Positions 1 through 9,750 of a stretch of 9,750 nt of DNA are shown here, in pieces. The notes beneath the pieces are model-generated. The model was not told the DNA's origin. It worked only from the letters and a program-made list of their open reading frames with translations, and ran no database searches. The stretch comes from a virus. Lineage: Duplodnaviria > Heunggongvirae > Uroviricota > Caudoviricetes. The stretch lies in the IMG/VR virus record IMGVR_UViG_2579778631_000016; one strand, written 5' to 3'. Within the stretch, counting starts at the first letter, position 1. Each line of letters starts with the position of its first letter. The translations under genes were made by a program, and so were the position numbers.

Positions 1-282
1 TTACCGCCGCAACCGCTCCGGCTTCTTCCAGTGGTACGTTATTTTTTCTTTCTCCCGATACAGTTCAACGCGGCGATTGTAGGCCAGCATTTCCAGAACG
101 CGGATCCGTATGTCGCGCATATCAACATCATTAAGCTGGATACCATCACGGCGCATCACCTCAGCAACAATACGCACATAATTTTCAGCGGTCACGCTGT
201 CCGGCTGTGTGGCCTGTTCGTCATGCTGCTGGCTGATTCCGGTAACGCGGCGGATTAATCCCAGTAGTTCGGCTTCTGTCAT
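1..282 (-). CDS. hypothetical protein, 93 aa (MTEAELLGLIRRVTG...)
   Basis: The 1..480(-) ORF was trimmed to the internal ATG at 280-282, which is preceded by a GGGGG Shine-Dalgarno; stop TAA at 1-3. The longer N-terminal extension runs through the cos-like sequence and does not look protein-like. No family recognised. Confidence 0.45.
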   Translation of the reverse strand: MTEAELLGLIRRVTGISQQHDEQATQPDSVTAENYVRIVAEVMRRDGIQLNDVDMRDIRIRVLEMLAYNRRVELYREKEKITYHWKKPERLRR

Positions 283-312
283 TGTGCCCCCATCGCTCTG
301 ATAGTCTGGTGT

Positions 313-392
313 CGTCGGGTCCTTCCTGGAATTATGGCCCGTTACGGGGCGGCGACCTCGCGCGTTTTCACTATTTATGAAAATTTTTCGGG
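313..392 (+). other. lambda-type cohesive-end site, copy A (cosQ-like + cosN)
   Basis: The + strand reads cgtcgggtccttcctggaattatggcccgttacg / GGGCGGCGACCT / cgcgcgttttcactatttatgaaaatttttcgg. The 12-mer at 347-358 and its flanks match the lambda genome left end and concatemer junction as I recall them (...cgacgggtcctttccggtgatccgacaggttacg|GGGCGGCGACCTCGCGGGTTTTCGCTATTTATGAAAATTTTCCGG) at nearly every position. Confidence 0.7.
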
Positions 393-395
393 ATC

Positions 396-494
396 CATGT
401 CCGGTTTCTCTGCAAGTTAACCATATGAAAAATATAAAAACATGCTTTCCATGAACCGGACATGCGCAAAAAACAGACACTAAAACCGGACATC
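396..494 (+). repeat. three copies of GAAACCGGACAT(G/C), one inverted; candidate cosB-type small-terminase binding sites
   Basis: catgtccggtttc at 396-408 (inverted), tgaaccggacatg at 452-464, aaaccggacatc at 483-494. Spacing is about 60 and 30 bp, close to whole helical turns, and the array sits immediately downstream of cosN copy A where lambda has the R3/R2/R1 sites of cosB. Confidence 0.4.
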
Positions 495-561: not shown

Positions 562-996
562 TTACTGTTCTGTATCGGCTGATTGCTCCATGCTGGCACG
601 GCGAACGCTTACGGCATGACGCCACCCAGCCAGAAAGCCAGCCATTTTATTTCGTGCCTTGCTCACATCTTCCGGTGAATAGCCGTAAATCTGCAAACCT
701 TCATCAAATCGATGTTCTGTTTCTTCACTGGAGTACTCGTCACGCTCAGATGAAAGCAGCCTGGCAAACATAATTTTTTCCAGCGCACTGGTTTCTACGT
801 GATATCTGATGGCCTCAAGACGGCTTTTACCTGAAGACCAAAGCAATGTATGCCCGATGTGATAACCGCCAGACTTTCCGCGATCCGCATTAAGATACGG
901 CATCCCCTGTTTGGTCCATGCGCGAATAGTGGTTCTGTTAACCTTGAAATGTTCAGCTATTTCCTGCTGACTTACAAAACAAGCTTTATCAATCAT
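562..996 (-). CDS. Nu1-like terminase small subunit / packaging-specificity protein, 144 aa
   Basis: N-terminus VSQQEIAEHFKVNRTTIRAWTKQGMPYL aligns with the lambda Nu1 winged-HTH region KKQLADIFGASIRTIQNWQEQGMPVL. ATG at 994-996 has an AAGGTAA Shine-Dalgarno and lies 89 nt downstream of cosN copy B on the same strand. No terminase large subunit gene follows. Confidence 0.75.
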   Translation of the reverse strand: MIDKACFVSQQEIAEHFKVNRTTIRAWTKQGMPYLNADRGKSGGYHIGHTLLWSSGKSRLEAIRYHVETSALEKIMFARLLSSERDEYSSEETEHRFDEGLQIYGYSPEDVSKARNKMAGFLAGWRHAVSVRRASMEQSADTEQ

Positions 997-1057
997 AATG
1001 TTACCTTAACTGCATGGTTAAATATTAATCAAGTGGTGGTGGTGTCACCTTCACGGA

Positions 1058-1158: not shown

Positions 1159-1572
1159 TCAGATGGTTTTCAGTATGCGCTCGATGTCGCCATCATCGCC
1201 CGGGTTTCTGCCGTCGTATGCCATGCCAGCTGAAACGGCTTGCGGGCTGTGCATGTCCATAAAGTTTTCAAAGGCTGCGGTAAGCTCCGGCGCAACCTTC
1301 TGGCGTTCCTGCTCTATGGTCATGCTAAGGATGCTTTTAGCCGTACCAACATCGATACAAGGCACGTTTGCCATTGCACGTAACAGCGGCTGATAGTCGT
1401 TATGCTCATGAAGCGCCATAATCGCATCAGCGCGCGGCTTGTCCTGCTCTTCCAGTTTGTTGAGTTGATATACGGCCTCGTAGGTTGATAAACCTCTGTC
1501 AGCCATTGCCCGCGCTTCGGCTTTAAATTTACTCGCCAGCGGTAGCGTCATGATGCTTTCATTCGTTGCCAT
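1159..1572 (-). CDS. hypothetical head-module protein, 137 aa
   Basis: ATG at 1570-1572 with an AGGGGGAA Shine-Dalgarno, 12 nt after the stop of the gpD-like gene and followed by a terminator. Function unknown; its position suggests an accessory head, scaffold or size-determination protein. Confidence 0.6.
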   Translation of the reverse strand: MATNESIMTLPLASKFKAEARAMADRGLSTYEAVYQLNKLEEQDKPRADAIMALHEHNDYQPLLRAMANVPCIDVGTAKSILSMTIEQERQKVAPELTAAFENFMDMHSPQAVSAGMAYDGRNPGDDGDIERILKTI

Positions 1573-1584
1573 CGTTCCCCCTGC

Positions 1585-1920
1585 TTATCGGGCCAGCGGC
1601 TGAACGGATACGCCAGAACCCGCAAAGGCGGCGCATTTTTTCGCATCGGTGTCGACGCTCTCGGGCCAGTTCACGGCGGCGATATTAAAGATCCCCGTCT
1701 TGTAGCACTGTGCTGATTTCTGCTTTGACGTGTCCACGGGGTACGAAGTCAGATAAACAGCCTTTCCGGACGCCTGACCATCCCACGGCTTAAACTCGCC
1801 ATTGTCCGCCAGCATCAGCGGGGTAAATTCCTGAATGACGCCAGCATCAGCGGCAAAATGTACCAGCGTCGTGGATACCTGCTGACTGCCTGCAAATAAC
1901 TCAATGTATGGAGTGTTCAT
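1585..1920 (-). CDS. head decoration protein, lambda gpD-like, 111 aa
   Basis: TPLMLADNGEFKPWDG and YKTGIFNIAAVNWPES...KKCAAFAGSGVSV match lambda gpD (TPLMLDTSSRKLVAWDG; YKSGTFRYEDVLWPEA...KKRTAFAGTAISIV). GGGGGA Shine-Dalgarno; directly follows the capsid gene. Confidence 0.8.
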   Translation of the reverse strand: MNTPYIELFAGSQQVSTTLVHFAADAGVIQEFTPLMLADNGEFKPWDGQASGKAVYLTSYPVDTSKQKSAQCYKTGIFNIAAVNWPESVDTDAKKCAAFAGSGVSVQPLAR

Positions 1921-1931
1921 AGAATCCCCCG

Positions 1932-2987
1932 TTAACCAATTTTGACGGTAACAAATTTGCGAATGTCTGCCGGCACCGGCTGCGGTGCGCTGTGCGTCTG
2001 CACGTACTCAATCGCCGGATCGCCGTCCTCAATCCAGTTTTTCGGGTAGTACATGTTTTGCGTTGCGCCCGTTCTTACCGCTTCCTGATCCATAATCGCA
2101 CCATAAGCAACCAGCCCTTTATTGTTGGTGTTGCCCAAGACCAGCAAATCAGGCTCAAGGAAATGTTTTTCGGTGCCGTCGCTGTCGGCGTATTTGCCGG
2201 AATAGACGATAAGGGCAATATCGCCCAGATAGCCTTTAAAGCTCACCACTTCGCCCAGGTTTTTACAGGCCAGTTCTGCGGCGGATTCTGAACCACGGGA
2301 AAGATCGTACAGTTCGCGGAATTTTTTAAAGCTGCGTAACGTGCGCCATACCTCAGCGCCCATAATCATGACGTTTGCGGGGCAATTGCCCTGATCCGCA
2401 TAAAGCTCGATATCATAGATTGGATCGTGGGTTTCTTTGTCCTGCTCGGACCATTTACGGCCTTTGGCCTGCTCTATGATGTTGTTTTCCGGCATCTTCC
2501 AGTCGATTTCATAGCGTTCTATGCCTTCGCCCTCAATGATGTTTTTTCCGGTCGTTACCGCATTTACCGCCAGCCATTCAACACGCGCTTTAATAGCGTT
2601 TACCTGGCGGCGCATGTTGCCAGTAATCAGGCGCATACGGCGATAGGTTGGGTCGTTAAGCTGTGCCGGATCTTCTCCAGCCATGCGCATGATGGTTTTT
2701 GTTGGATCGATTTCGTGCTTTGGCTTCATGTAGCCAGGTTTAATCGTGCTGGTTTCGTACCCTTTATCGCGCTGTACCTGGCTACCAACCATAGGCGAGC
2801 AAAACGCTGACATAGTGACTTCTTCGGTGTCCAGGTTATCCAGCATGATGTTTTGGGTGTTGAATGTCGCTACTTTCTGGAAAAACAGCGTGGTAAACAG
2901 CGGACTAAATTTAAATTCCGCAATATCCCCGCGATTCAGGTACGCAAAAAGCTGGTGAGTGTTAAGTGCCGTTGCTTTGCCTGCCAT
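1932..2987 (-). CDS. major capsid protein, lambda gpE family, 351 aa
   Basis: Several blocks match lambda gpE: EFKFSPLFTTLFF / KFKFDPLFLRLFF; PGYMKPKHEIDP / PGYVKPKHEVNP; EDPAQLNDPTYRRMRLITGNMR / EDPQNLADPAYRRRRIIMQNMR; GDIALIVYSGKY / GDVAIVVYSGQY; YPKNWIEDGDPA / YPKNWVTTGDPA. Start overlaps the upstream stop (TAATG). Confidence 0.9.
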   Translation of the reverse strand: MAGKATALNTHQLFAYLNRGDIAEFKFSPLFTTLFFQKVATFNTQNIMLDNLDTEEVTMSAFCSPMVGSQVQRDKGYETSTIKPGYMKPKHEIDPTKTIMRMAGEDPAQLNDPTYRRMRLITGNMRRQVNAIKARVEWLAVNAVTTGKNIIEGEGIERYEIDWKMPENNIIEQAKGRKWSEQDKETHDPIYDIELYADQGNCPANVMIMGAEVWRTLRSFKKFRELYDLSRGSESAAELACKNLGEVVSFKGYLGDIALIVYSGKYADSDGTEKHFLEPDLLVLGNTNNKGLVAYGAIMDQEAVRTGATQNMYYPKNWIEDGDPAIEYVQTHSAPQPVPADIRKFVTVKIG

Positions 2988-3193
2988 TATTCACCCCCAT
3001 AATTTTTATGCATCCCAAGCGCCGCAAGTAAATAAGAGCGTACAAGTGAACCTATCGACGGCTCCGGCGTCATCAGCGGATCCAGTCCAGCCGCCACGCC
3101 AGCCTCATAGTTTTTTTTGTGGCGCTGCTTGAGCACCTCCACGATTTCGGGGCTTATGTACACCGAAACACCGCCTTTTTTCTCTTCAGCCAT
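2987..3193 (-). CDS. hypothetical protein, 68 aa, first gene of capsid operon
   Basis: ATG at 3191-3193 with a GAGGAA Shine-Dalgarno; its stop overlaps the capsid ATG, indicating translational coupling. No family recognised. Confidence 0.55.
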   Translation of the reverse strand: MAEEKKGGVSVYISPEIVEVLKQRHKKNYEAGVAAGLDPLMTPEPSIGSLVRSYLLAALGMHKNYGGE

Positions 3194-3277: not shown

Positions 3278-3357
3278 TGATATTGAGTTGTGTTGCAAAT
3301 TGTGAAATGATTATCCCGATCATGTGTGTCAGTGCACCAAAAAGCCTCATATGCAAA

Positions 3358-3395
3358 AGCCCGATAAGCCACCTCTGACCTTATCGGGCTTTTTT
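3358..3395 (+). terminator. rho-independent terminator on the + strand
   Basis: agcccgataag-(11 nt loop)-cttatcgggct followed by TTTTT (3391-3395). No annotated + strand gene ends here, so it would terminate a short + strand transcript starting near the capsid promoter. Confidence 0.45.
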
Positions 3396-3519
3396 ATCTG
3401 CCTGCAAAGATGTCGAACAAAAATTAACCATAACCATCATCTTTTTTGCATCAAAACAATTAAAAACAATAAATTACGCTCATGATGATGATGACGATAA
3501 AATCACAAAAATGCGCTTT

Positions 3520-4285: not shown

Positions 4286-4332
4286 TTTTATTTTTACCCC
4301 CTCGTTTAAAAAGTTTTGAGTTGTGCCTCCCC

Positions 4333-4560
4333 TTGTCTACCTTATCTACCTTACTGGCTCTCATGCCAGTAATGGCGCGGCTTTCAGCGGGGTAGAGTGC
4401 TTTTATCCACTATCTACCCCGTATCTACCTCCCTGTCTGATTCAGGTAAAATCAGGTAGAGAGGGTAGATAGTAGGTAGACAGTGAAAAAAGGCTGTCTA
4501 CCTAAGTTAATATACTGAATTGAATGTATTTTTCTTTACTCAGGTAGACAGGGTAGACAG
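4333..4560. repeat. iteron array (about 11 copies of GGTAGA(CAG) / (CTG)TCTACC) with an AT-rich spacer; putative replication origin
   Basis: GGTAGA at 4391, 4455, 4464, 4475, 4543, 4552 and TCTACC at 4336, 4345, 4413, 4424, 4497; the full 9-mer GGTAGACAG occurs three times. An AT-rich stretch at 4500-4540 could be an unwinding element. Lies immediately downstream of the primase/helicase gene, as in SaPI/PICI origins and P4 ori/crr. Confidence 0.7.
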
Positions 4561-4573
4561 CCATTGCAAAAAA

Positions 4574-6322
4574 TTATAAAAACGCGTCGCAATCGTCTGT
4601 TGTTATTGCGTTAGTCTGCGTTACTCCCTTAACTTTCCGCGTAATATATTCATGTCCGTAAACTTTCGCGGCTGGCTTCATAGCCTTGCCAAAGTCATTT
4701 ACGTTTAGCGGTTTGCTCCTGCCTGCGTATGCCATAAACGCCAGATAGACGCGGTAAAGGCTGTTCCTGGTCGTGTACTTCACTGAATCGCCACCGCCCC
4801 CCATCATCAGGCCGCGCGCTTCCTCCAGAAAATTCAGGAACTGGCAAAACTCAATAACCGGATCCGTTTGCTGCTTTATCGCCAGTGCTTCATCACCGTC
4901 ACGCTGTTCAATGAGTAAAGCCCGTGCCTTTTCAGGGGCGGAAAAGTTCGCCAGTAATCGGCGGATAATCACAGGGATTTCAGCCGCAATCTTTTCCGGT
5001 AGCTCCCTGTCTTTGTCGGCCTCACTGACGATATTGTCGAAACGGAAAATCACGCGACGACGTGCCACACCTCCGGCCCGTTCGGTGAATATCATCGGGT
5101 TGTTGTTGGTCGCCAGCACCACCGCCCTGATTACCGCCGTGAAACGCTTTTCATATTTCGGGTTAACTTCCACGGGGTCGCCGCCTGTGATTTTCTTGAT
5201 GCCCGTTCCTTCGCCTGTATATTTCGGCTGGTCAGCCAGGACGATAAGACGACTCCCGACAACCTGCGCACGTCCACCAGCATCATCAAGCGATGTCATT
5301 TCAGCGCTTACCGTGTTCTGTTTCCCTGCCAGAAGGCTGGCTATGTGTGTGAATGTACTTTTACCGCTCCCGCCGTCTCCGGTGGCCTCAATAAACATCT
5401 GCCAGTCGTACCGGTTCGCCATAATCATGTACAGCGCGGCACATATACGCATCATCTTGCTCGGGTCTTTTCCGGCTGCGTGCTCAAGCCATTTATGAAA
5501 GTTTGGCGCGTTATCGCGGATGTTCTCCCCGGGTGCTGGTGGCGTGTACTCAATGCCGTTGTGCGTGGTGATCCAGTTCTCCGGCGTGTGCGGGGAAAAT
5601 TCCCCCGTTTTCAGGTCAAGCGCACCATTGGCGAACGGCAGCAAATCGCCGGACGGCTCGCCCATTGGTTCGGCAATAACTTTTAACGCTTCCACGGCGT
5701 TATTGATTACGCGCTTGCTGAAAGTGGCCCTGTGCTCTGAATAGATCGCCACCATTTCGCGGCTCAGCTCCATTGTGCTGACCGGACACCATACCCCGCC
5801 GCGCCATACGTGAACGATTTCACTTTCAGGATGCACACAAACGCCATCAAAGCGCTCGGCAAGCAGCTGCGCGCGCTCACTGTCTGCCATTTGTGCCAGT
5901 TGCGTATTTTTCTGCTCCGGCATGGTAAGCCCTGCGGCAATATTTTCACGCTCAGCATTCAGATAGCGCCGCCAGTTTTCACACTTCTGGGCGTGCATTC
6001 CTTCGGGGTAAAAATTTGCGTCCTGAATATCTGCCGCCGCCAGCTTCTGACCAATCTTTTTGGTCTCCACCAAATCCAGTTCTCCGGCCTGGTACAGCCT
6101 TACGCGTTTTTTTCCATCAGGAACAATTTGCAGTGCATCAAGTTCGGCAAGCTGATTTGGCCCAAGCCACACAGGAGGCACATTATCGCCGGATGCGGGG
6201 CCGTCCTGCTCCTGCCACTGTTTTGCATGTGCCCACGCATCACTACCCGCGAAAATAATCACCTCTGTGTCTTTGTGTTTTATTCCGCGTGGCTGTTTTT
6301 TTACGTTCGGTGCCAGTTTCAT
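4574..6322 (-). CDS. P4-family primase / SF3 helicase replication initiator, 582 aa
   Basis: Walker A motif GDGGSGKST, a downstream LIVLADQP Walker B-like segment and a C-terminal region typical of phage/plasmid primase P4-family (D5_N-like) proteins. Start overlaps the stop of the upstream small ORF (ATGA). Confidence 0.9.
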   Translation of the reverse strand: MKLAPNVKKQPRGIKHKDTEVIIFAGSDAWAHAKQWQEQDGPASGDNVPPVWLGPNQLAELDALQIVPDGKKRVRLYQAGELDLVETKKIGQKLAAADIQDANFYPEGMHAQKCENWRRYLNAERENIAAGLTMPEQKNTQLAQMADSERAQLLAERFDGVCVHPESEIVHVWRGGVWCPVSTMELSREMVAIYSEHRATFSKRVINNAVEALKVIAEPMGEPSGDLLPFANGALDLKTGEFSPHTPENWITTHNGIEYTPPAPGENIRDNAPNFHKWLEHAAGKDPSKMMRICAALYMIMANRYDWQMFIEATGDGGSGKSTFTHIASLLAGKQNTVSAEMTSLDDAGGRAQVVGSRLIVLADQPKYTGEGTGIKKITGGDPVEVNPKYEKRFTAVIRAVVLATNNNPMIFTERAGGVARRRVIFRFDNIVSEADKDRELPEKIAAEIPVIIRRLLANFSAPEKARALLIEQRDGDEALAIKQQTDPVIEFCQFLNFLEEARGLMMGGGGDSVKYTTRNSLYRVYLAFMAYAGRSKPLNVNDFGKAMKPAAKVYGHEYITRKVKGVTQTNAITTDDCDAFL

Positions 6323-6618
6323 TTTTTACCCCTGAATACGTTAAGCATCTTTTTTATTTCCTGAATATTGGCGCGTGCTTTCTCCCTGCTGGTTGGAACG
6401 TTACGCGGTACAGCCTGCACCAGAGAAAAATCACGGTCGAACTGATAAACAGGCATCACGCAATCATATTCGTAGCCTTCACGACGGTAGGTTACGCGCC
6501 GTTCCTCCACGCCCTTAATCATTACCGTGCCGCCGTACTGGTCGCGGTAAATATCACCGCGCATGAATTTAGTGCGAGTTTTGCCACTGGCAGTTAAGCC
6601 AGAATATTTAAGTTTCAT
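6319..6618 (-). CDS. hypothetical protein, 99 aa
   Basis: Translationally coupled to the primase gene; family not recognised. Confidence 0.6.
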   Translation of the reverse strand: MKLKYSGLTASGKTRTKFMRGDIYRDQYGGTVMIKGVEERRVTYRREGYEYDCVMPVYQFDRDFSLVQAVPRNVPTSREKARANIQEIKKMLNVFRGKK

Positions 6619-6623
6619 TATTT

Positions 6624-6851
6624 TTATTCTCCGGTATGGGGCGAGTTATTATTCTCGTGAATTGCCATCACTGTATTTAATTCATTAATAACAGGCGTTA
6701 ATAGCGTACGCACGGCAGAAAACATCATTGAATCAGATTCATCGCCACTTTCCGGCACATCAATTAACTTAAGTAGTAATGCGTCCATTTCCTTTGCGCG
6801 GATTAATGCGTTTTCAGAATGAACAAGAACATCAAAGGGTATTTTATGCAT
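6624..6851 (-). CDS. hypothetical protein, 75 aa
   Basis: ATG at 6849-6851 overlaps the stop of the upstream 67-aa ORF (ATGCATAA); acidic, no family recognised. Confidence 0.55.
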   Translation of the reverse strand: MHKIPFDVLVHSENALIRAKEMDALLLKLIDVPESGDESDSMMFSAVRTLLTPVINELNTVMAIHENNNSPHTGE

Positions 6852-7047
6852 GACTCACCCCCTGGCGAATACGGGCAGCGAATACCATCACGCAGCCATC
6901 AGGAGATTGCTGACGCGCTTCCTGTTCGCTGGTGGCCTCAATGGTAATCACGCGCGGTTGTGCCGTGCTCAGGGCGATAAAACGCCAGATGTATTTATTC
7001 AGGTTGTGCGAGTCCCGCCCTTTCGGGTGTGTGGTATGATTTAACAT
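6844..7047 (-). CDS. hypothetical protein, 67 aa, first gene of leftward replication operon
   Basis: Internal ATG at 7045-7047 of the long 6844..7791(-) ORF, preceded by GAGGTAG at good spacing. The remainder of the 315-aa ORF is judged spurious. Confidence 0.5.
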   Translation of the reverse strand: MLNHTTHPKGRDSHNLNKYIWRFIALSTAQPRVITIEATSEQEARQQSPDGCVMVFAARIRQGVSHA

Positions 7048-7141
7048 AGCTACCTCGATACTCTTTCTATCGTTGGTGGTTAGAAGCCCGTTGGTGTTGG
7101 TAGCACCTGCGGGCTTTGTCTTTTCATCGATTACCTCAACA

Positions 7142-7225
7142 AAGGTGTCAGCCACTATACTAGTAACAGGTGTCAGCCACGTCAATAGTGTTTTTCCATT
7201 TTCTTGTGTGTATACTGTCAGCCAC
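7142..7225 (+). promoter_or_regulatory. three direct repeats of TGTCAGCCAC in the divergent promoter region (putative operator)
   Basis: aaaggtgtcagccac (7142-7155), acaggtgtcagccac (7166-7180) and tactgtcagccac (7213-7225). TATACT hexamers at 7156-7161 and 7211-7216 abut the repeats. Located just upstream of the RHH gene start at 7247. Confidence 0.5.
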
Positions 7226-7246
7226 CTAATAACAAGGAAATCAGAT

Positions 7247-7426
7247 ATGGCAACGAAAGCAGTTAATGGAAAATCCAAAAAACTTGAGGCACGAGTCCCC
7301 CATGCAATAGCTGACGCTGTAGAAAATTTAAAGGAAGAAGGCGAAAGCACTGGGCAATTTATCGTTTCGGCACTTGAAGGCGAGATCAAACGCCGCCAGC
7401 GCCGCAAGGCCAAAGAACCAGAGTAA
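7247..7426 (+). CDS. ribbon-helix-helix (Arc/CopG-like) DNA-binding protein, 59 aa
   Basis: ATG at 7247 with an AAGGAAA Shine-Dalgarno. KKLEARVPHAIADAVENLKEEGESTGQFIVSALEGEI fits a beta-strand / helix / loop / helix RHH pattern, and the basic tail is RRQRRKAK. The long N-terminal extension in the ORF track was rejected. Confidence 0.65.
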   Translation: MATKAVNGKSKKLEARVPHAIADAVENLKEEGESTGQFIVSALEGEIKRRQRRKAKEPE

Positions 7427-7483
7427 TCACCATCAGCGCCGTGGTGTAAGGTATTACGGCGCATTGCTATGCAGGACAACACA

Positions 7484-7657
7484 ATGACCGATAAAGAATT
7501 GACCAAAACATTATCACCGGCACGGAAAAGACGGCGCAGAAAGATAGAGCATGAATCAGAAAGATTCGCGCCATGTGCTTTTGCCCTTGAGCAATTCCTT
7601 AAAGAGTACAGGGAAAAGCGCTCATTGCAGGTATGGCAACGAACTGAACCAGACTGA
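7484..7657 (+). CDS. hypothetical small basic protein, about 57 aa
   Basis: Second ATG (7484) has an AGGA Shine-Dalgarno whereas the first (7469) does not. Contains ARKRRRRK. Followed by a terminator. Start is uncertain. Confidence 0.4.
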   Translation: MTDKELTKTLSPARKRRRRKIEHESERFAPCAFALEQFLKEYREKRSLQVWQRTEPD

Positions 7658-7752
7658 TTGCATTGCCCACCAGCCTGATAGCGGCTATCATCCCCGTGCT
7701 TATGTTTGGGATCATATACACATAAGGCGCAGCGGGTTAATTGTTCAGAAAG

Positions 7753-7779
7753 GCGGCTCCATATCGGGGCCGCTTTTTT
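7753..7779 (+). terminator. rho-independent terminator
   Basis: gcggctcc-atatc-ggggccgc followed by TTTTTT (7774-7779); lies between the convergent RHH operon and alpA. Confidence 0.55.
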
Positions 7780-7805
7780 CGTGTTTGTCATATCTGTGAT
7801 ACCCG

Positions 7806-8012
7806 TTAAGCAGCCGTTCCGCGTGCTTCCTGTTCGCGTTCTTTCTGCCAGGCCAACACATCATCCTCATACCATCCGCGACGGCGTAAACCAACGCGAA
7901 AACCCTGCGGAAATTCTCCGGCGTTGATCATGCTTTGCAGCGTGCTGTCTGCCTTGATGTGGATAATTTTTTTTACTTCCTGGCGAAAGATAATTTTTCT
8001 GATTGCTTCCAT
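7806..8012 (-). CDS. alpA: AlpA-family phage transcriptional regulator / excisionase-like protein, 68 aa
   Basis: KADSTLQSMINAGEFPQGFRVGLRRRGWYEDDVLAWQ matches the AlpA-family HTH pattern (...TIYRLIxxGxFPKPxKLGxRxxxWxExEVxxW). AAGGTAA Shine-Dalgarno; sits beside a P4-type integrase as in CP4-57. Confidence 0.8.
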   Translation of the reverse strand: MEAIRKIIFRQEVKKIIHIKADSTLQSMINAGEFPQGFRVGLRRRGWYEDDVLAWQKEREQEARGTAA

Positions 8013-8088
8013 CGTGATTTACCTTGTGAATCCGGTGTATTCCGGTGACAAATACGGTAAATCATCGGATATGGGTAAAAACAGTTCC

Positions 8089-8119
8089 CACCGTTTTTAA
8101 ACGGTATACACCGTTTTTT
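8089..8119. promoter_or_regulatory. dyad ACCGTTT-tt-AAACGGT plus a second ACCGTTTTTT copy upstream of alpA
   Basis: caccgttttt at 8089-8098 and 8109-8118, with the palindrome ACCGTTTTTAAACGGT at 8090-8105, in the alpA 5' region. Candidate regulator binding site. Confidence 0.3.
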
Positions 8120-8145
8120 ATATTGATGATTTGAAATGGAATTAT

Positions 8146-8168
8146 AAAAAAAGCGGCATTTCTGCCGC
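8146..8168 (-). terminator. rho-independent terminator after the 83-aa ORF
   Basis: gcggca-tttc-tgccgc followed on the minus strand by a 7-nt U tract (A tract 8146-8152 on +). Confidence 0.5.
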
Positions 8169-8179
8169 TTCCAGGATTG

Positions 8180-8431
8180 TTACCGCCATTTTTTGGGCCT
8201 GCCTCCGATCTTCATAGATGCCGGACGTACGACCTTATCAATACTTACCGCCAGATTTCTGGAAGCGCCACGGGATACCAGAAAATCTACTACCTGTTTT
8301 TTTGATGGGGCCGTCGTTCTGTCCTCCGGATCGTAGGTTGACCAAAATTCATGCTGAACCATCAGGGCCAGTTGCAGCCCGTCGCAATTGCATCTGATAT
8401 TTTTTTGCATCTTAACGGTTTCATGTTTCAC
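8180..8431 (-). CDS. hypothetical protein, about 76-83 aa, between int and alpA
   Basis: ORF with a GTG at 8429-8431 or an ATG at 8408-8410; both have weak ribosome-binding sites. Followed by a terminator. No family recognised. Confidence 0.4.
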   Translation of the reverse strand: MKHETVKMQKNIRCNCDGLQLALMVQHEFWSTYDPEDRTTAPSKKQVVDFLVSRGASRNLAVSIDKVVRPASMKIGGRPKKWR

Positions 8432-8508
8432 GGCCTTGTCGTTAAATTTGATGCAATTATACGACGGTTTTACATGGTTTTCGTAGTTTTTACTGGTTTT
8501 CTGTACAG

Positions 8509-9750
8509 CTACACGGCTCGGATACCCCTTTTACCACTGGCGAGGGTTACGCCCGTCGCCGCAGCCTCGACAAATTCGCCCCACCAGCGCATCAGCACGA
8601 TGCGTTTTTCTATGTAGTTGCTCCGGTTGTATGCCCGTCTAACTTCGTTGGTGTCGACGTGGGCAAGTGCCGCCTCTATTACGTCCGGCTCGAATCCTTC
8701 CTCGTTCGCTGCTGTGCTGAATATGGCGCGTAATCCATGAGACACCAGCACGCCAGCGAATCCCATACGCCGCAATGCTGCGTTAGCTGTCTGGCTGTTC
8801 ATCGGCTGCTGTGGGTCTTTCAGACTTGGGAAAACGTAATTGCGGTGGTGGCTGATTGGTTTCATGGCCTCCAGCACCGCCATAGCCTGACCGGAAAGCG
8901 GGATAACGTGATCCCTGCGCATCTTCATGCGTCCGGCAGGTATCGTCCATTGCTTCGCGTCCAGGTTGATTTCATCCCACCGCGTTGATGACGCTTCGGC
9001 GGGACGGGTTACGGTCAGTAACTGCCATTCAATCAGTAATCTGGTCTGCCGTTCTGTTGCCGATACTGATAAAGCCTGCATAAGCTCCGGCAGCTGTTCG
9101 GGGCGGATTGTTGGCATATGTTTTTTTACAGGTGAGGGAAACGCCTTACGCACATTCATAGCCGGATTGGCATCAATCAGCCCACTGTTGGCGGCGTAAT
9201 CCATTACCTCATTAACGCGCTGTAAAACCCGCTTGAGTGTTTCCAGGTTGCCGCGCTCCTTGATGGGGGTAAGCACTTCAACGAACCTTCGGGCGGTGAG
9301 GGTATCTATTGGCGTGTTGCCGATGAACGGGAATACATATTTATCCAGCGAACGCCAGATGTCTTTAATCGTGTTGGGGGCCAGATTCTGGCTGATTTTC
9401 ACCTGGTACCATGCCGCCGCCACATTTTCGAACGTGTTCCCTTGTCTTCGGGCCTCTGTCTCTCTTTTTTGCCTCTCGTGGTCCTGCGGGTCAGTTCCGG
9501 CACTGATTAACGTCCTGTACTCGCTACGGCGTTTTCTGGCATCAGCCAGGGAAACATCTTCAAGCGATCCAAAACTCAGCAATATTCTTTTTTTGTCCGA
9601 TGGTCGGTAGTAGGAAAATCTCCAGAGTTTTGATCCAGACGGTTTGACCAGGAGAAAAAGCCCTCCGCCGTCCTGCAGGGTGTACTCCTTTTGCGCTGGT
9701 CTGGCTGCTTTGATCTGCACTGTGGTTAATGGGTGTGTTTTTCTCGCCAT
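8509..9750 (-). CDS. int: tyrosine integrase, P4 / CP4-57 IntA type, 413 aa
   Basis: N-terminus MARKTHPLTTVQIKAARP...GGGLFLLVKPSGSKLWRFSYYRP is typical of P4-like integrases. The C-terminal catalytic region has HGLRAIFST and AYNRSNYIEKR, the tyrosine motif. ATG sits at the window edge (9748-9750). Confidence 0.95.
   Translation of the reverse strand: MARKTHPLTTVQIKAARPAQKEYTLQDGGGLFLLVKPSGSKLWRFSYYRPSDKKRILLSFGSLEDVSLADARKRRSEYRTLISAGTDPQDHERQKRETEARRQGNTFENVAAAWYQVKISQNLAPNTIKDIWRSLDKYVFPFIGNTPIDTLTARRFVEVLTPIKERGNLETLKRVLQRVNEVMDYAANSGLIDANPAMNVRKAFPSPVKKHMPTIRPEQLPELMQALSVSATERQTRLLIEWQLLTVTRPAEASSTRWDEINLDAKQWTIPAGRMKMRRDHVIPLSGQAMAVLEAMKPISHHRNYVFPSLKDPQQPMNSQTANAALRRMGFAGVLVSHGLRAIFSTAANEEGFEPDVIEAALAHVDTNEVRRAYNRSNYIEKRIVLMRWWGEFVEAAATGVTLASGKRGIRAV

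Follow-up and report, generated by a model that had tools for sequence, protein, structure and literature searches.

The locus

The window, that is, the whole stretch of 9,750 nucleotides analysed here, carries on its minus strand, at positions 562–996, an open reading frame (ORF) that runs from ATG to TAA and encodes 144 amino acids; by the ORF listing of the window it is intact and real. Its product is identical at 144 of 144 positions (100%) to c1503 of E. coli CFT073 (C_RS07025, WP_000565609.1), which was named RppA, for "redirecting phage packaging", in the island EcCICFT073 (Fillol-Salom 2019, Mol Cell, PMC6739421). Bases 1–1600 of the window share 97.3% DNA identity with E. coli CFT073. 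Taken jointly with the explanation as a whole, it is nearly certain that this ORF is the rppA of a phage satellite of the EcCICFT073 type. The features of the locus and of the island around it are as follows.

1–282, minus strand: 93-aa gene, the last of the island; full-length match to phrog_1561 (unknown function), no Pfam or NCBIfam match; hypothetical in CFT073, AST198 and Nissle 1917
312–493, plus strand: cos2, inverted with respect to rppA and cos1; cosQ-like box 312–327, cohesive end 347–358, cosB zone 391–493
562–996, minus strand: rppA; predicted N-terminal winged helix-turn-helix (wHTH) akin to the λ Nu1 DNA-binding domain, and C-terminal helical dimerisation region; matches 6HLK, and phrog_57 at residues 7–47; function from PMC6739421
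997–1132, minus strand: cos1; cosQ-like box 1117–1132, 12-nt cohesive end 1086–1097, island-specific cosB zone 997–1053
1159–1572, minus strand: 137-aa protein; phrog_1999 (unknown function) at E = 6e-65 and, more weakly, phrog_53 (head maturation protease) at E = 5.5e-8 over positions 495–567 of 583
1585–1920, minus strand: homologue of the head decoration protein (λ gpD family), c1500 in EcCICFT073; Pfam HDPD, E = 5.6e-18
1932–2987, minus strand: homologue of the major capsid protein (λ gpE family), c1499 in EcCICFT073; Pfam Phage_cap_E, E = 1.2e-49
4286–4573, no strand: candidate replication origin; GGTAGAC/GTCTACC iterons in both orientations, as tandem and inverted repeats at 4331–4565; GC about 0.42–0.50
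4574–6322, minus strand: primase/replication initiator; Pfam D5_N, DUF5906 and Pox_D5
8509–9750, minus strand: tyrosine integrase; Pfam Arm-DNA-bind_3, Phage_int_M and Phage_integrase; adjoins tRNA-Pro/yejM in the genome

Two cos sites of λ type bracket rppA and are inverted relative to each other: the upstream neighbour of the gene, cos1, is co-oriented with it, and the downstream neighbour, cos2, is inverted. The λ cohesive-end sequence GGGCGGCGACCT occurs exactly, once in each cos, at 347–358 on the plus strand and at 1097–1086 on the minus strand, and the pair forms a 78-nt inverted repeat, 82% complementary, at 316–393 and 1051–1128. An earlier note on this DNA, made from the raw sequence, had placed a Nu1-like gene at exactly 562–996, and had described it as followed by an inverted cos and by a 93-aa gene. 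The opposite-strand cos does lie at lower coordinates, with the 93-aa gene beyond it; it follows from the ORF listing, the inverted repeat and the positions of the cohesive ends that these coordinates and this description were correct, and the inference drawn there was sound. Two other 93-aa ORFs, at 850–1131 and 1112–1393 on the plus strand, lie opposite minus-strand features with which they overlap, namely rppA, cos1 and the 137-aa gene; they were taken as spurious.

RppA and the small terminase of λ

In a PDB sequence search, residues 2–125 of RppA match the RppC sequence of 6HLK and 6HN7 at E = 5.3e-31, and the next matches, at E of about 0.1, are λ TerS DNA-binding domains, namely 1J9I and chain B of 6HN7, the latter being the λ TerS DNA-binding domain in the RppC–TerS complex. 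Residues 72–125 align with RppC alone. The alignments point to an N-terminal wHTH joined to a C-terminal dimerisation region that is not of TerS origin, the same combination of wHTH and helical dimerisation region that is found in RppC (6HLK; 6HN7 with λ TerS residues 1–98). RppA and RppC are 43.65% identical and do not cross-dimerise; RppC, with 153 aa, binds λ TerS more tightly, and escape from it needs two TerS mutations (PMC6739421). Besides homology to RppA and RppC, other marks of the Rpp group are present: the gene lies directly 3′ of a cos that has phage-like cosQ and cosN and a non-phage cosB, and it is carried by a PICI, with int, a regulator, pri-rep and ori, a size of about 10 kb and a specific att site, and without terminase or tail genes. 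The group's trait of binding helper TerS, blocking recognition of the phage cos and promoting packaging from cos1 has been published for the identical protein (PMC6739421).

The likeness of RppA to Nu1, on the other hand, is limited to residues ~7–71, as judged by BLASTP, PDB, PHROGs and Pfam. A single pairwise BLASTP comparison with λ Nu1 aligns 64 aa at 30% identity (E = 3e-6) and finds no match further on, and phrog_57 (terminase small subunit) matches residues 7–47 at E = 3.9e-8. The Pfam profile Phage_Nu1 (PF07471) scores 14.7 bits, where the cut-off is 30, and the aligned part extends over residues 8–40 and profile positions 3–36 of 164; a genuine prophage TerS, in contrast, matches profile positions 62–163. 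NCBIfam returns nothing meaningful for RppA, and what Pfam and NCBIfam yield besides are generic HTH matches below threshold. Therefore RppA, which is 37 aa shorter than Nu1, falls short of the full-length gpNu1 profile; no Nu1 similarity is detected past residue ~71, in the region that would correspond to C-terminal oligomerisation and TerL binding; and there is no cognate large-terminase gene immediately 3′ of rppA, where cos2 and the 93-aa gene are found and then the chromosome. Murialdo & Feiss (PMC9026076) put the TerL-binding domain within the final ~40 residues of TerS.

On sequence evidence, RppA belongs with the Rpp proteins by every criterion that can be tested and lies outside the gpNu1 family. 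Because its likeness to Nu1 is N-terminal only, with no C-terminal counterpart and a sub-threshold Phage_Nu1 score, RppA is a TerS-derived adaptor and not a small terminase. The comparison with λ gpNu1 (TerS; PDB 1J9I; PF07471) is instructive in both directions. The Nu1 gene, like rppA, stands immediately 3′ of cosQ–cosN–cosB. RppA differs in having no detectable oligomerisation/TerL-binding half and no adjacent gpA, in falling below the Pfam threshold and in recognising another cosB; it poisons and redirects Nu1 and does not replace it. The description "Nu1-like" used in the earlier note is thus apt for the N-terminal DNA-binding domain, by the BLASTP and phrog_57 matches, and inapt for the rest of the protein. 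Its term "small terminase" has to be given up, since the C-terminal half of Nu1 has no counterpart here and the published action of the protein is only as a heterocomplex with helper TerS. The similarity to TerS on which that note made its reading depend is detectable and restricted to the DNA-binding domain; by HMM, it shows as the domain-limited match to phrog_57, with Pfam Phage_Nu1 remaining sub-threshold.

Large terminase and genomic context

The absence of an adjacent large terminase, which the earlier note had stressed, is borne out. In tblastn searches with λ gpA, the PhiR12_1 TerL and the TerL of the APEC O18 prophage as queries, the best E in the window was 0.57, and nothing at E ≤ 1 was obtained in the 21.7-kb genomic context. 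The idea of a large terminase hidden in or near the window was accordingly rejected, and none was found within the island or up to 5 kb to either side of it. Just two ORFs of the window exceed 400 aa, those of the integrase and of the D5-type primase, and neither terminase nor portal nor tail genes are found in the island gene content by Pfam annotation and the TerL queries.

An exact look-up of the primase sequence led to contigs in which the genes follow one another as they do here. One contig, L011 (GCA_001265925.1), contains the window at positions 6573–16322 in reverse complement, with 1 mismatch in 9750 bases. In this contig the island is flanked by tRNA-Pro/yejM at the integrase side, and by a fragment of yejO (pertactin-type autotransporter), narP and ccm genes at the other. 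Related islands end alike, the one in CFT073 abutting phoQ and the one in AST198 abutting yejO. From these flanks and these island ends it follows that no large terminase lies just beyond position 1, the place where the earlier note had suggested that one be sought. That the window is a complete satellite island, from the integrase to the 93-aa gene, is a conclusion about which, together with the rest of the explanation, we have very little doubt.

A 16-bp exact direct repeat, TTTTAGTTATACGTTT, occurs at L011:6485–6500, between tRNA-Pro and int, and at L011:16804–16819, 482 bp beyond the 93-aa gene. These repeats may be the att cores bounding an island of about 10.3 kb.

cos1 as the partner of rppA

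Alignment in register shows that the two coses of the window are close to λ, and to each other, over the first 44 bp and unlike one another thereafter. In bp 1–44 the identity is 93% for cos1 against λ, 93% for cos2 against λ and 86% for cos1 against cos2; in bp 45–120, the cosB zone, the values drop to 24%, 28% and 29%, respectively. The minus-strand site and the plus-strand site correspond to the "EcCICFT073 cos1" and "cos2" of Fig S1A of PMC6739421, the sequences of which were compared as machine-read text with small errors. The ATG of rppA is at bp 102 from the cos1 cohesive end, and the start codon of PICI-C has likewise been given as bp 102 (PMC9026076).

The cosB zone of cos1 was absent from 50,697 phage records, in which the matches stop at about bp 52. 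In this zone the proposed, not proven, R3-PICI of bp 48–65 (PMC9026076) falls at window positions 1033–1050, and ACCACCACC, at bp 55–63 of cos1 (1035–1043), lies inside it. It has been published that cos1 is needed for transfer and stimulated by RppA, and that deletion of cos2 raises transfer (PMC6739421/PMC6092414). From the need for cos1, its stimulation by RppA and the effect of the cos2 deletion, it follows that the functional partner of rppA is the upstream, co-oriented cos1. The emphasis that had been laid on the inverted downstream cos was therefore right in that such a site exists, and misplaced in that the functional one is upstream.

Proposed mechanism and alternative explanations

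The evidence on RppA itself is as follows. Expression of c1503 blocks plaque formation by λ and φ80, and the mutations that allow escape lie in TerS; binding of TerS by RppA is seen in two-hybrid assays; deletion of rppA lowers island transfer; RppA decreases the transfer of phage-cos plasmids and increases that of cos1 plasmids; the specificity was confirmed by cosB swaps and a φ80 chimera; and for the homologue RppC there are pull-down data and crystal structures (PMC6739421). Moreover, a φ80 terS deletion abolishes EcCICFT073 transfer, and the TerS escape mutants reduce it, as has also been published.

According to the mechanism proposed for this protein, upon induction of a λ-, φ80- or 21-type helper the island would excise and replicate. 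The RppA homodimer would give way to a heterodimer with the small terminase of the helper (TerS/Nu1), formed through mimicry of the interface of the TerS DNA-binding domain and a coiled-coil with the long TerS helix. The hybrid DNA-binding module would no longer recognise the phage cosB, and because of this loss packaging of the phage would be blocked; it would instead recognise the island-specific cosB of cos1, directly 5′ of rppA. TerL of the helper would be recruited by the ~40 residues at the C terminus of the TerS in the heterodimer, as proposed in PMC9026076, and would nick the λ-identical cosN and package island concatemers into phage-sized heads. Since helper TerS would bring TerL and the hybrid module would find cos1, the island needs neither a TerL nor a complete TerS of its own. 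This mechanism was published for the identical protein and is carried over to the present island by identity; what was observed here is the protein identity, the layout of the coses and the absence of terminase genes. As part of the explanation as a whole, we are confident, to the point of near certainty, that it would apply to the present island, and no feature of the sequence contradicts the explanation by RppA and a PICI. The packaging-redirection role assigned to the gene in the earlier note is thus upheld, by the 100% identity to a protein whose role was demonstrated in PMC6739421. Its further statement that the element must borrow the helper enzyme is right as to borrowing, and too narrow as to what is borrowed, which is TerS plus TerL and not just the ATPase/nuclease.

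The pac-type SaPIs offer a different model, in which the gene would encode an autonomous satellite small terminase that binds island DNA and pairs with helper TerL, so that helper TerS would be unneeded. The homology of the N-terminal wHTH to the DNA-binding domain of Nu1 agrees with this, and in the sibling island of Nissle 1917 the corresponding slot is filled by a TerS of full length (180 aa) that resembles Nu1 and N15 gp1; given this full-length protein, a strategy based on an autonomous TerS may well exist in the island family. RppA, being much shorter than Nu1, without similarity past residue ~70 and confined to the first 36 positions or so of the Phage_Nu1 profile, shows no counterpart of the ~40 C-terminal aa by which TerS binds TerL (PMC9026076), and the effects of the φ80 terS deletion and of the escape mutants contradict an action independent of helper TerS. 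We consider such a function for RppA very improbable. The outcome in the SaPI system, in which TerS and Ppi act, is the same, in that helper packaging is turned to satellite DNA and packaging of the helper is blocked. The SaPIs, however, use two proteins, a complete satellite TerS that works with phage TerL and Ppi that blocks phage TerS, while Rpp does both jobs alone and keeps helper TerS in the complex (PMC6739421).

If the gene encoded a common HTH regulator of island transcription, with no relation to packaging, this would account for the top Pfam and NCBIfam matches (HTH_28, HTH_36, MerR_1 and BldC), all of which are sub-threshold. The identity to RppA, whose packaging phenotype is demonstrated, and the position of the gene directly 3′ of a cos, in the layout of cos–Nu1, make this explanation exceedingly unlikely. 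It could also be argued that the locus is the functionless remnant of a decaying lambdoid prophage terminase, with a truncated Nu1 pseudogene, as there are λ-like coses on both sides and homologues of the gpE and gpD families nearby. But the reading frame is unbroken, and islands whose DNA differs by ~3% here encode the identical protein; the C-terminal half is not derived from Nu1 and matches the folded dimerisation domain of RppC; and the surroundings have the full organisation of a PICI and specific att sites. Decay of this kind deserves hardly any credence.

Rpp hijacking explains the high-frequency spread of pathogenicity-type islands of E. coli by λ-like phages, with the phages suppressed meanwhile. 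Because the mechanism was established in 2018–2019 with the same protein, the present finding adds no new biology; the rppA/cos1/cos2 module is published and already known, and is of low interest as a discovery.

Related islands

EcCICFT073 of CFT073 has the same order of cos1, rppA, inverted cos2 and 93-aa gene, and the capsid-homologue genes too. The backbones are mosaic: there is no match over 7676–9750 of the window, and the identity is 84–94% elsewhere. The integrase/regulatory module (~7071–9750) is unrelated to that of EcCICFT073 and is 97.7% identical to that of the islands at tRNA-Pro/yejM in AST198 and Nissle 1917. Likewise, the integration site is tRNA-Pro/yejM here and the roxA–phoQ interval in EcCICFT073. 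The segment 3396–3707 has no match in CFT073 or AST198, both of which have a PerC-family regulator gene there.

Nissle 1917 and ATCC 25922 have an island that shares integrase and att site with the present one and encodes a TerS-like protein, WP_000835278.1, in the rppA slot (L009:2840–3760). Its gene, like rppA, is bracketed by two inverted λ-type cos sites and is without TerL. WP_000835278.1 is a full-length small terminase of 180 aa unrelated to RppA; its identity is 35% to λ Nu1, along the entire protein, and 46% to N15 gp1. Since the slot holds rppA in one island of this family and the gene of a full-length TerS in another, the cos-bracketed segment appears to behave as an exchangeable cassette of packaging specificity. 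In the upstream cos of Nissle 1917, GTGGTGGTGGT at about bp 49–59 is the reverse complement of CACCACCACCAC, which occupies bp 54–65 of the cos1 of the window.

The cosB of cos2 and a possible second helper lineage

Positions 315–493 of the window are 93.3% identical to phages PhiR12_1 to PhiR12_5. The differences between cos2 and the PhiR12-type sequence are almost entirely in cosQ–cosN, and the cosB zone (391–493) is ~99% identical. PhiR12_1 has the cos2-like sequence between its lysis genes and Nu1/A, and in prophages of APEC O18 and of strain 2000-3039 a cos2-like cosB is found ~50 bp 5′ of a 169-aa TerS (WP_000235436.1) and TerL. The loci with a cos2-type cosB are L005:4077–4179 and positions 3501–3605 of L006 and L007. 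Among 5426 complete E. coli genomes, about 226 have a cosB of the cos2 type, versus 94 for that of cos1.

The cosB zone of cos2 contains three copies of ATGTCCGGTT, at 397–406 on the plus strand and at 454–463 and 484–493 on the minus strand. In the register of cos2, by motif scan, these are bp 51–60 forward, bp 108–117 reverse and bp 138–147 reverse. In the λ sequence R3 is at bp 49–64 and R2 at bp 109–124, and the first two copies share position and orientation with λ R3 and R2. All three are invariant in an alignment of four sequences, in which the ~10 substitutions of the most diverged prophage fall elsewhere. The TerS of PhiR12 type is related to Nu1 in the C-terminal half only (46% identity; Pfam profile positions 62–163), and its DNA-binding domain is unrelated to that of λ Nu1.

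The papers of 2018 and 2019 stated that EcCICFT073 had no identifiable phage cosB, and asked for the reason for two cos sites (PMC6092414, PMC6739421). In the literature searched we found no later discussion of the origin of the cos2 cosB, nor relevant work on PhiR12 phages, and the review of Murialdo & Feiss (PMC9026076) makes no mention of cos2. We tentatively suggest that cos2 could be the complete native cos (cosQ–cosN–cosB) of a second lambdoid helper lineage and not a degenerate duplicate, a proposal that we regard as somewhat more apt to fail than to hold. That cos2 carries the cosB of another phage lineage is possibly the only new point of this analysis. If the proposal were true, there would be two packaging routes, one Rpp-dependent, via cos1, for helpers of the λ, φ80 and 21 types, and another Rpp-independent, via cos2, for helpers of PhiR12 type, which RppA probably cannot bind. 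The published question of why some PICIs carry two cos sites would thereby be answered, and the inverted pair would also serve to bracket the exchangeable specificity cassette, which holds RppA in the present island and a full-length TerS in that of Nissle 1917. A functional cos2 would mean a wider helper range for such islands.

Other genes and features of the island

The gene set of the island comprises int, pri-rep, a predicted origin and SSB. The origin is probably the iteron cluster in the AT-richer gap just 3′ of the primase gene, judging from its repeats and composition; a position of PICI origins after pri-rep is described in PMC6092414. The 137-aa gene and the gpE- and gpD-like genes make up a partial head module in the island, and the 137-aa protein may have a scaffold (Nu3)-like domain. 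Deletion of c1499 or c1500 did not relieve interference (PMC6092414).

An Rfam scan of the window gave no family at gathering score. A low-GC stretch separates the SSB gene from the capsid module; in it, at 3348–3400, there is a 21-nt hairpin, 86% complementary and with an 11-nt loop, followed by a T run (CTTATCGGGCTTTTTTATC), which looks like an intrinsic terminator. A 315-aa ORF at 6844–7791 on the minus strand has no Pfam match and overlaps a gene of YlcI/YnfO type at 7073–7426 on the plus strand; its N-terminal part is, in RefSeq, a truncated Icd-like pseudogene in AST198 and Nissle 1917, and it is probably not a real gene. The AT skew changes sign at 7000–7750.
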